Origin: Escherichia phage LMessi
Sequence record: PP925823.1
Length of the DNA stretch: 37,205 bases
Reading direction: 5' to 3' (one strand)
Below are positions 20,444 through 21,207 of the stretch, piece by piece. A model generated the notes under the pieces. It ran no database searches, was not told where the DNA came from, and worked only from the letters and a program-made list of their open reading frames with translations. The translations under genes and the position numbers were made by a program. Each line of letters begins with the position of its first letter. Position 1 is the stretch's first letter.

Positions 20444-20468
20444 ACAAAAAAGCCACCCGAAGGTGGCT
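20444..20468 (-). terminator. hairpin + U-run element between the lipoprotein cargo genes and the I-like gene
   Basis: Minus strand AGCCACC-TTCG-GGTGGCT followed by TTTTTTGT, then a GGAGAA RBS and the I-like ATG. Confidence 0.4.
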
Positions 20469-20486
20469 TGGATTATTTATGTTTTT

Positions 20487-20822
20487 TCAAAGACATGATC
20501 TGGCGGCCGTAGCCCAGTGGTCGTTCCAACCTTTCGCGACGGCATAAACCTTTATATCGCTTCCGCCTGTCGCTGATTTATCGATATTCACTACTGAAAG
20601 AGCACCGAATATATCGTCAGATGCTGTGATTTTGTATCCTGACTCAGTGGGTATGCTGGAGCTTGAAGATCGTAGTTCCACCCATTTAGGAGCAAGGCAA
20701 CGGTTAACTTCCTCAACAGTTTTTGTTGAATGCTCTGATAGAATAGGTTTTTGTTCTTCCAGTGAGGAAACAGAACACCCCATCAGCAGAAAGATAAAAA
20801 TTGGGAGGATAATCTTTTTCAT
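20487..20822 (-). CDS. lipoprotein (cargo gene), lipobox LMGC
   Basis: MKKIILPIFIFLLMGCS signal peptide; AT-rich; inserted between the K-like and I-like tail genes. Confidence 0.5.
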   Translation of the reverse strand: MKKIILPIFIFLLMGCSVSSLEEQKPILSEHSTKTVEEVNRCLAPKWVELRSSSSSIPTESGYKITASDDIFGALSVVNIDKSATGGSDIKVYAVAKGWNDHWATAARSCL

Positions 20823-20828
20823 CGCACA

Positions 20829-21176
20829 TCAGTCCTTTTGACAGATTGACTCATATGAATCAATTTTCTTTTGGTCTTGGTCATTAATAATGATGATTGG
20901 TCCATGATCATTGACCTTTCCATCTTTGACCTCAATCCGCACATAATATGGTTTTTTACCCGTATATGCGCCGTATGAATTTTTAGCATTCACATAACCG
21001 CAAACATATCCAGTATTTTCTCCGAAATCACGGAAAAATGATTCAAACTTAGCGCTATCAGGATCTTTGAGGGTGTCTTTAACTAAGGATTCCCCCATGT
21101 CAATAAAATCCTTTTCCGAAGGTGAGCAACCAACAATAATCAGGCTACACGCCAATATCGAAAGAAATTTCCTCAT
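20829..21176 (-). CDS. lipoprotein (cargo gene), lipobox IVGC
   Basis: MRKFLSILACSLIIVGCS signal peptide; AT-rich; adjacent to the second lipoprotein. Confidence 0.5.
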   Translation of the reverse strand: MRKFLSILACSLIIVGCSPSEKDFIDMGESLVKDTLKDPDSAKFESFFRDFGENTGYVCGYVNAKNSYGAYTGKKPYYVRIEVKDGKVNDHGPIIIINDQDQKKIDSYESICQKD

Positions 21177-21207
21177 ATCCCTAACCCCTTTTTTGTTTTA
21201 CAAAAGG

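Follow-up and report, generated by a model that had tools for sequence, protein, structure and literature searches.

A 37,205-nucleotide (nt) stretch of DNA from Escherichia phage LMessi (sequence record PP925823.1; the whole of this stretch is called the window below) carries two adjacent minus-strand genes between tail genes K and I, which are termed lipoA (20829-21176) and lipoB (20487-20822) here and encode lipoprotein precursors of 115 and 111 amino acids (aa), with the lipoboxes IVGC and LMGC, respectively. It is very probable that they form an accessory cassette, assembled stepwise in a known hotspot and composed of two conserved exported lipoprotein precursors. The overall reading that we favour, with moderate confidence, is that of a moron-type cassette in the K/I gap, whose lipoproteins act on the envelope and do not mask the receptor used by the phage itself. 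As to their role, an envelope-level exclusion or fitness factor is our best guess, and phage exclusion of some kind is proposed only tentatively. A moron, in the sense of Juhala and Hendrix, is an extra transcription unit inserted between conserved phage genes.

The cassette and its slot in the tail operon

The window represents an HK97-like (Hendrixvirinae-type) temperate siphophage, and the list of open reading frames (ORFs) together with the Pfam matches places L, M, the tape measure gene and J in the lambda order around the insert. The upstream boundary of the slot is tail gene K (21208-21918, minus strand), with a Prok-JAB domain (PF14464, 1.8e-20), an NlpC/P60 domain (PF00877, 7e-22) and a match to phrog_30 (2e-132), while the downstream boundary is tail gene I (19831-20430, minus strand; phrog_32, 4e-72). 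Beyond I lies the ORF of the receptor-binding central tail fibre J (16241-19777, minus strand), which shows 99% identity to J of HK106 over the compared part. The start of lipoA follows the stop codon of K by 31 nt, and lipoB starts 6 nt past the stop codon of lipoA, with its Shine-Dalgarno sequence within the 3' end of lipoA. The GC content is about 0.37 across the insert versus about 0.54-0.56 in the flanks; gene by gene, it is 0.374 for lipoA and 0.438 for lipoB compared with 0.554 for K and 0.556 for J, and at third codon positions (GC3) it is 0.36, 0.39 and 0.63 for lipoA, lipoB and K, respectively. The ORFs and the base composition therefore confirm two adjacent AT-rich lipoprotein genes between K and I, as the initial annotation had described them from the sequence letters, and the range it gave (20444-21200) covers the cassette correctly.

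Both lipoA and lipoB are real coding genes under purifying selection, since the ratio of nonsynonymous to synonymous substitution rates (dN/dS) against homologs is 0.03-0.09 for lipoA and 0.05-0.19 for lipoB, full-length homologs are numerous (dozens for each) and the AlphaFold2 (AF2) models are confident. That the two are chance ORFs or decaying remnants could be argued from the lack of an assigned function and of a detected promoter, but this explanation is refuted by the conservation data, that is, by the low dN/dS, the full-length conservation over dozens to thousands of homologs and the invariant motifs, and the confident folds also speak against it; its probability is practically nil.

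In the initial annotation, the K-I-J block was taken to be otherwise conserved, which is wrong, as the K/I gap carries differing cargo in many related phages. In N15, K and I abut with nothing between them; therefore, lipoA and lipoB are extra DNA, and the suggestion that both were inserted cargo is borne out. For HK106, mEp234, HK446 and their relatives, K and I match those of the window, and the gap is occupied by a different small gene and an annotated terminator. The HK022 record labels gp20 (in K/I) as well as gp22 and gp23 (in I/J) as "moron gene product", and the K/I gene of HK106 is gp20-like. Similarly, Gp19 of phiKO2 in K/I is annotated as "putative moron gene product" and is followed by a terminator, while gp20 of ES18, a lipoA homolog annotated as "possible moron", is located upstream of the tape measure gene between two terminators. 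The same K-lipoA-lipoB-I order as in the window is found in Escherichia phage Fraca, with 97-98% identity of the cargo proteins. Consequently, the kind of element is already known: moron cargo at this position of the tail operon has been described for HK022 and phiKO2. lipoA and lipoB are new members of it, and homologs of both had been marked as putative morons some twenty years ago. Because relatives carry nothing or unrelated genes in the slot, it is highly improbable that the tail requires the cassette. As accessory cargo in a documented slot, it is an ordinary example, which adds little unless a function is found.

The tail proteins of the window were mapped onto 160 viral-contig loci. 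Relatives of lipoB (56-99% identity) are located directly upstream of gene I in all 80 of the 80 viral-contig loci that carry them. When 73 lipoB loci were re-examined with longer flanks, 26 had lipoA directly upstream (that is, the pair), 31 had lipoB alone, 33-66 nt after K, and the remaining 16 had other cargo between K and lipoB. Comparison with the lipoB-only loci places the addition of lipoA between TGCTAACCTTT and the Shine-Dalgarno sequence of lipoB. These patterns point to stepwise assembly, in which lipoB is the resident of the slot, immediately preceding I in every case, and lipoA is a mobile gene of a much larger family that was added just upstream of the lipoB Shine-Dalgarno sequence.

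Among the other cargo found between K and lipoB are genes of the antirepressor type (KilA-N and Bro-N/P22_AR_C) as well as genes for several secreted proteins, for a YecR-like lipoprotein, for a YebO-like protein, and for an NA37-like protein paired with a membrane protein. The YecR-like lipoprotein (PF13992; locus L160, 3575-3901) shares the slot with lipoB in one contig group, and the YebO-like protein (PF13974, the family of HK97 gp15; locus L156, 1239-1463) does so in another; envelope proteins thus stack in the K/I slot. The NA37-like pair was seen in locus L052 (1650-3990), where an NA37-like (nucleoid-associated) protein of 396 aa that has a zinc-ribbon-like motif at its N-terminus is accompanied by a 376-aa protein with C-terminal membrane helices, and a lipoA-like gene then follows. 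This two-gene insert could be a defence system.

Downstream of lipoB, an intrinsic terminator (20443-20469, minus strand) with an 8-bp GC-rich stem, a TTCG loop and a T-run abuts the ribosome-binding site of gene I. It reads AAGCCACC-TTCG-GGTGGCTT followed by TTTTTGT, and its folding free energy (dG) of -15.1 kcal/mol with a z-score of -2.9 agrees with the strong hairpin and U-run that had been pointed out 3' of the genes. At the other end, the boundary element CTAACCTTTT (21202-21211, minus strand) overlaps the stop codon of K, and the order on the coding strand is the K stop codon in CTAACCTTTT, the cargo, the hairpin GCCACCTTCGGGTGGC, the T-run and the ribosome-binding site of gene I. The 10-nt boundary element is an exact direct repeat, whose second copy (19817-19826) follows the stop codon of I, and TGCTAACCTTT also ends K in loci with other cargo. 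At the I/J junction (19790-19826, minus strand), CTAACCTTTT is followed after 5 nt by the same terminator hairpin. An exact 22-nt repeat, AAAAAAGCCACCCGAAGGTGGC on the plus strand, occurs at 20446-20467 and 19790-19811, and gene I lies between the two terminator hairpins. Since both elements recur after I, only 5 nt apart, the I/J junction looks like an empty copy of the K/I slot. The hairpin upstream of I is found in loci with other cargo as well, and HK106 has a similar one; because it is present whatever the cargo, the terminator belongs to the slot and not to the cargo. The 10-nt and 22-nt repeats are possible recombination anchors for cargo exchange.

With regard to the hallmarks of morons, the insert is extra DNA between neighbours that are adjacent in relatives, its base composition deviates (GC and GC3 are lower than in K and J), and it has a terminator at its 3' end, though the hairpin stays the same with different cargo and recurs after gene I. 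One classical hallmark, an own promoter upstream, is missing in this copy. Scanning of 19700-22000 for sigma-70-like promoters found 0 versus 2.9 expected, and the best hit of a relaxed scan of the 350 nt upstream was equalled by 79% of shuffles, where it should be noted that consensus scans can miss real promoters. For the lipoA relatives in the tape-measure slot, promoter scans were likewise no better than chance. Transcription with the late tail operon is the simplest and most likely reading, since no own promoter is detectable; expression would then come from read-through of this operon, and the terminator would insulate I and J from transcripts that are not antiterminated.

Both genes are rare in E. 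coli. Among 5,426 complete E. coli genomes, lipoB-like genes were found in 2 and lipoA-like genes in 18 by a lower-stringency search, all annotated as "hypothetical protein", and for the insert as a whole megablast returned no match among complete E. coli genomes. Homologs occur in Enterobacter, Citrobacter, Xenorhabdus, Cronobacter and Pantoea hosts.

The two lipoproteins and their families

The precursor encoded by lipoA begins with MRKFLSILACSLIIVGC followed by SPSEK, where the basic residues R2 and K3, a hydrophobic stretch, the lipobox LIIVGC17 and Ser at position +2 can be recognized. The lipoB precursor, MKKIILPIFIFLLMGC followed by SVSS, has the same organization, with K2 and K3 as basic residues, a hydrophobic stretch, FLLMGC16 and Ser at +2. 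The Met at -2 of lipoB is beyond the strict lipobox [LVI][ASTVI][GAS]C and presumably within the broader PROSITE set. According to the +2 rule, Ser (not Asp) at +2 predicts Lol-dependent sorting to the outer membrane, and on the strength of this residue both proteins are predicted to be sorted there. The lipobox is present in 23 of 32 lipoA relatives and in 24 of 27 lipoB relatives. In the reading that we favour, each protein would consist of a lipoprotein signal peptide and a compact alpha/beta domain of about 95-98 aa, which would face the periplasm and probably contain one disulfide; lipidation, outer-membrane location, periplasmic orientation, disulfides and envelope action are what we infer for the two of them.

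The two proteins are unrelated to each other. lipoA gives a full-length profile match to phrog_2320 (1e-34, residues 1-114), and its AF2 model, with a predicted local distance difference test (pLDDT) score of 87, consists of an N-terminal helix, a four-stranded antiparallel sheet and a C-terminal helix. In the alignments, the core of the mature protein, KDPDSAKF...VNAKNSYGxYTG, is conserved together with the pair Cys59/Cys112, which probably pins the C-terminal helix. lipoB matches phrog_914 over its full length (2.5e-25, residues 1-111), its AF2 model has a pLDDT of 83 and a beta-alpha-beta4-alpha fold, and Cys42 and Cys110 are invariant in the alignment of its family. Comparison of the models with PDB structures by Foldseek returned only weak and generic similarities, which give no clue to function: NTF2, VirB8 and the N-terminal domain of PBP2a for lipoA (E about 0.03, template modelling score 0.35-0.42), and the KA1 domain and the Francisella lipoprotein Flpp3 for lipoB (E about 0.01-0.05). 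A search of a viral structure library with lipoB gave uncharacterised phage proteins only, the best being a Pseudomonas phage protein. The initial annotation had stated that neither protein resembles a lipoprotein that could be named, and the scans agree: no family was found for either protein in Pfam-A (E <= 1) or NCBIfam, no match to the PADLOC anti-phage defence models at E <= 1, and nothing below E = 0.4 in profile searches of PDB sequences.

The lipoB family is small, with 76 representative clusters in 1.84 billion proteins, nearly all of about 110 aa. In contrast to it, lipoA belongs to the much larger family mentioned above, which has 3,652 clusters at E <= 0.001, and a lipoA relative was found in 498 viral-contig stretches. 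Among the best 120 lipoA relatives listed, a functional name is absent, and the sole Pfam domain is SPOR, a peptidoglycan-binding domain that is fused to some of them. The lipobox Cys is invariant in the alignment even in the Pseudomonas, Acinetobacter and Gordonia relatives, and the core residues D38, P39, S41, A42, F44, V62, N63, N66, G69 and G73 are retained in the relatives from AUS531phi, Zirinka and SEN5.

Mapping of the loci shows that lipoA relatives occur in three slots of the tail operon, i.e., upstream of the tape measure gene, in the gap that separates it from M, and in the K/I gap. Copies with at least 91% identity are always paired with lipoB. Those with 50-62% identity are immediately upstream of the tape-measure gene, which is the slot of HK97 gp15, and more distant copies are found in K/I without lipoB, between tape measure and M, or upstream of the tape measure. 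Some relatives deviate further from the arrangement in the window. For example, Pseudomonas phage AUS531phi encodes a protein with a lipoA domain and a SPOR domain in K/I, gp16 of Gordonia phage Zirinka is encoded on the opposite strand, with the gene of the tail assembly chaperone on one side and the tape-measure gene on the other, and the homolog of the P2-like phage SEN5 is located between ogr and int, next to int and C. Since the genes of Zirinka (opposite strand), ES18 (two terminators) and SEN5 (next to int) are independent units, the lipoA family is compatible with expression from a prophage. For almost all lipoA relatives listed, a GC-rich hairpin with a T-run and then the next tail gene follow on the 3' side, and a terminator scan confirmed that hairpin and T-run for loci L016 and L027 and for ES18.

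The lipoA-type domain, for which there is no Pfam model, was seen in phages of Pseudomonas, Acinetobacter, Salmonella (P2-like) and Gordonia, in every case as a lipoprotein and in some cases fused to SPOR; examples of the family are L242:2501-3154, L244:2474-2791, L245:2501-2884, L004:2480-2935, P0139 and P0173 (locus handles, with positions where given). It is a candidate for the definition of a new domain family. The family has thousands of members, in three tail-operon slots and in phages of both Gram-negative and mycolic-acid bacteria, and a single expression-and-plating result could assign a function to the whole of it. The more interesting residue of the present analysis is therefore the breadth of the lipoA family, its slot-hopping and its peptidoglycan-domain fusions, together with the Cor-like tether of lipoB described below. 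In addition, the lipoA homolog of Fraca (LR597645, VUF53266.1; L001:4023-4370) is annotated from an internal Met, with 270 instead of 348 nt, and this annotated start strips the signal peptide and lipobox from the deposited protein.

What the lipoproteins may do

Small phage lipoproteins are known to mask the outer-membrane receptor of the phage that encodes them, and the initial annotation proposed such a role, of the Cor/Llp type, for this cassette. One or both lipoproteins would then bind the periplasmic face of the outer-membrane receptor of J and inactivate it, and would protect the lysogen and the progeny. The precedents, all of them small outer-membrane lipoproteins encoded in structural modules, are T5 Llp for FhuA (PMC9586334), Rtp45 of phage Rtp for LptD (PMC12685063), Cor in phi80, N15 and HK022 (PMC3594210), and Lpp021 and Lpp010 in the mEpimmI phages (PMC11893012). 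The predicted outer-membrane location and the C-terminal Cys in both proteins, as in Cor and Llp, are also in favour of it. However, the proposal is not supported, as the proteins lack the homology, are spread over J types and co-occur with Cor. The references compared were Cor (from HK022 and N15), T5 Llp, lambda Bor and the experimentally tested Lpp of mEp021. No protein of the window is a homolog of Cor, Llp, Bor or Lpp021, and no family match to Cor, Llp or Bor was obtained for either lipoprotein when the suggested hidden Markov model and profile check was carried out, with hits to the three being absent from the Pfam, PHROGs and NCBIfam scans. Pairwise comparison gave E > 4 in BLASTP for lambda Bor, E = 11 in BLASTP and a probability below 1% in HHalign for Lpp021 (type A), and similarity confined to the signal peptide in BLASTP for Llp. 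Neither model matched the fold of a masking lipoprotein among PDB structures, nor did that of lipoB in the viral structure library, and no Llp entry was among the top PDB fold matches.

The relation to Cor deserves a closer description. Comparison with Cor by HHalign gave 79-94% with the signal peptides included, but these values were driven by the signal peptide, and membership in the Cor family was rejected. With the mature sequences, the probability falls to 11% for lipoB, covering 11 tether columns only, and to 0.1% for lipoA. lipoA is similar to none of the references. By BLASTP, the likeness of lipoB to Cor is confined to the signal peptide and the next 14 or so residues, C-SVSSLEEQKPILSEH versus C-AGVLEKQKPICSGT, in which an 11-residue motif, L-E-x-Q-x-P-[IV]-x-[ST], is common to both and lies equally far from the lipid-anchored Cys. 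What the two have in common is a tether motif, and not family membership; it may reflect a shared partner, a sorting or tether module, or an exchange of gene 5' ends. Being common to lipoB and Cor, the L-E-x-Q-x-P-[IV] part of the motif can be counted on the side of masking. The motif region of lipoB is at 20729-20775 (residues 16-31), and Cor itself was located in L238:7739-7972 and L239:7619-7855; the motif is conserved in both families, whose remainder is unrelated.

Masking lipoproteins such as Llp, Cor, Rtp45 and Lpp021 are encoded next to the receptor-binding gene and vary along with the receptor (PMC9586334, PMC12685063, PMC11893012); in the mEpimmI phages, for example, the type of lipoprotein goes with the use of OmpA or LamB as receptor (PMC11893012). 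The linkage of the cassette to J was examined in the 61 loci where J is complete, by clustering its C-terminal 200 aa. The lipoA-lipoB pair, counted at 95% identity or above, accompanies at least 9 J C-terminal clusters, some of them without detectable mutual similarity, and has no association with the commonest J cluster (8/27 vs. 15/34, p = 0.29), while Cor is enriched with that same cluster (9/27 vs. 3/34, Fisher p = 0.024); these loci come from related phages and are not independent samples, and the detection of Cor is limited by contig ends. Cor also stands alongside lipoB or the pair in 12 loci; therefore, lipoA/lipoB and Cor are not substitutes for each other. The presence of the pair with many J types together with the co-occurrence of Cor argues against masking of the own receptor. 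Furthermore, the genes are not beside the receptor-binding gene, and the mature proteins, of about 95-98 aa, are about 1.6 times larger than the known maskers of about 55-62 aa (about 6-7 kDa). Masking of the own receptor is hence improbable, whereas superinfection exclusion in a broader sense is plausible. Because it separated Cor from lipoA and lipoB, such a J-linkage test could be used to triage guesses that equate a phage lipoprotein with a receptor mask.

Two further explanations have to be weighed. The lipoproteins might be lysogenic-conversion factors for fitness or virulence, like Bor, Lom or SodCI, with effects on adhesion, on the tolerance of stress, or on resistance to serum, colicins or type VI effectors. 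Lambda Bor, an outer-membrane lipoprotein, gives serum resistance (PMC3594210), sodCI and a Lom homolog are inserted within the tail-tip operon of Gifsy-2, between M and L, the K/I slot also receives the YecR-like lipoprotein and several bacterial-type secreted proteins, and the bacterial hosts (Enterobacter, Citrobacter, Xenorhabdus, Cronobacter and Pantoea) are themselves associated with animals, insects or plants. On the other hand, neither protein is similar to any known virulence or fitness family, a prophage promoter was not detected, and both families look essentially phage-borne, lipoB always in K/I and lipoA in the many viral-contig stretches counted above, so that we regard a pure conversion role as rather unlikely. 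The alternative that they are helpers of the late lytic cycle, keeping progeny off envelope debris or altering the envelope or the peptidoglycan at about the time of lysis, seems quite unlikely to us as well. It accords with the position of the genes, which are co-oriented with the late operon and embedded in it, with no own promoter and a gap of only 31 nt after K, and T5 Llp also protects progeny from debris (PMC12685063). A weak hairpin between the K stop codon and the lipoA Shine-Dalgarno sequence would be compatible with translational coupling, but it is not significant (z = -1.46) and was rejected as a coupling device. Moreover, the lipoA relatives in Zirinka, ES18 and SEN5 are independent units elsewhere, and the cargo is absent from many fully functional relatives.

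We therefore return to the moron-type cassette of envelope-acting lipoproteins. The proteins would alter the envelope of the infected or lysogenic cell, and the likeliest benefit would be the blocking of other phages at the stage of envelope crossing, or a rise in host fitness by another route; neither protein would mask the receptor of its own J. An exclusion or fitness role is suggested because both the K/I and the tape-measure slots alternately carry YebO-like proteins, one of which, HK97 gp15 in the slot between the chaperone and tape-measure genes, is an exclusion protein that blocks DNA entry (PMC3594210). Peptidoglycan or another conserved envelope component, and not a fast-evolving receptor, is the probable target of the lipoA-type domain, because the polar core of this domain is invariant from Enterobacterales to Gordonia phages and because of the SPOR fusions. 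A more specific version, in which the lipoA domain acts on a universal wall component and blocks wall crossing by superinfecting phages with the logic of a periplasmic "immunity protein", is doubtful. Under this version, lipoA could bind peptidoglycan, or could inhibit the NlpC/P60 domain of K or the lytic domains of tape measures, and lipoB, with its Cor-like tether, could provide a second, receptor-independent layer. If true, it would be an immunity-protein logic in the periplasm that has not yet been described for phage exclusion.

Several points weigh against the favoured reading. Without a detectable promoter, expression from the repressed prophage, which a lysogen-protecting role needs, is unsupported for this copy. 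The slot position is weak evidence for function: a neighbouring tail slot of Gifsy-2 contains sodCI and a Lom homolog, and position alone does not tell a defence gene from a virulence gene. The sorting to the outer membrane and the disulfides, as we infer them, follow from residue-based rules, and the putative peptidoglycan link comes from domain fusions in distant relatives. Finally, no homolog returned by the searches of either family bears a functional name, and in the literature on phiKO2 gp19, ES18 gp20, tail-operon lipoprotein morons and Pseudomonas SPOR morons no functional study was found.

Related systems and the rest of the window

The closest known counterpart of lipoB is phiKO2 Gp19 (AAR83035), a homolog of 49% identity over the full length that has the lipobox, the Cys pair, the K/I slot and the terminator after the gene. 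It differs in having no lipoA partner, and phiKO2 is a linear-plasmid telomere phage, unlike the integrating HK97-like phages. For lipoA, ES18 gp20 is comparable, with 34% identity, the core motif, a lipoprotein signal and terminators on both sides; however, it has 151 aa, with an insert after the lipobox, and is directly upstream of the tape measure. HK022 gp20 and HK106 gp18 occupy exactly the same K/I slot, and HK97 gp15 the chaperone/tape-measure slot also used by lipoA relatives, but these three are single-pass inner-membrane proteins of the YebO family (PF13974) of about 74 aa and not lipoproteins. The PF13974 model, which has no match in lipoA or lipoB, detects HK106 gp18 and the L156 cargo, and in L156 a YebO-like gene and lipoB co-occur in one slot.

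Cor and T5 Llp resemble the two proteins as small phage lipoproteins with +2 residues compatible with the outer membrane and a C-terminal Cys, and Cor additionally has the LE.Q.P[IV] tether at the same offset as lipoB; they differ in the absence of global homology and in their location beside the receptor-binding gene, which for Cor is downstream of J. The mEpimmI proteins Lpp021 and Lpp010 are also lipoproteins from the structural gene cluster of temperate coliphages, for which exclusion was shown by expression (PMC11893012), whereas Lpp021 has 72 aa, is encoded downstream of J and is unrelated in sequence. Gifsy-2 is alike in carrying envelope-targeted accessory genes, sodCI and the Lom homolog, between conserved tail-tip genes of a lambdoid prophage; it differs in the M/L site, in sodCI being on the opposite strand, in the known families with virulence roles and in the lack of any sequence relation. 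As its record places it in M/L and not in K/I, Gifsy-2 sodCI is used here as a neighbouring-slot precedent only.

Elsewhere in the window, two co-oriented ORFs directly downstream of J (15945-16247 and 15307-15948, minus strand; phrog_7961 and phrog_4524) may be further cargo. They are at the position of N15 genes 22 and 23, with no detectable sequence similarity to them, and no Cor gene is present in the window at the position that it has in HK022 and N15. A 120-aa ORF (14980-15342, plus strand; phrog_25729) precedes the side tail fibre gene. The window further encodes a CI-type repressor at 8569-9000, has an ORF of the Peptidase_S24 type (LexA/UmuD-like) at 9061-9453, and at 11483-12730 encodes a tyrosine integrase that contains an Arm DNA-binding domain, which is consistent with a complete temperate phage or prophage.

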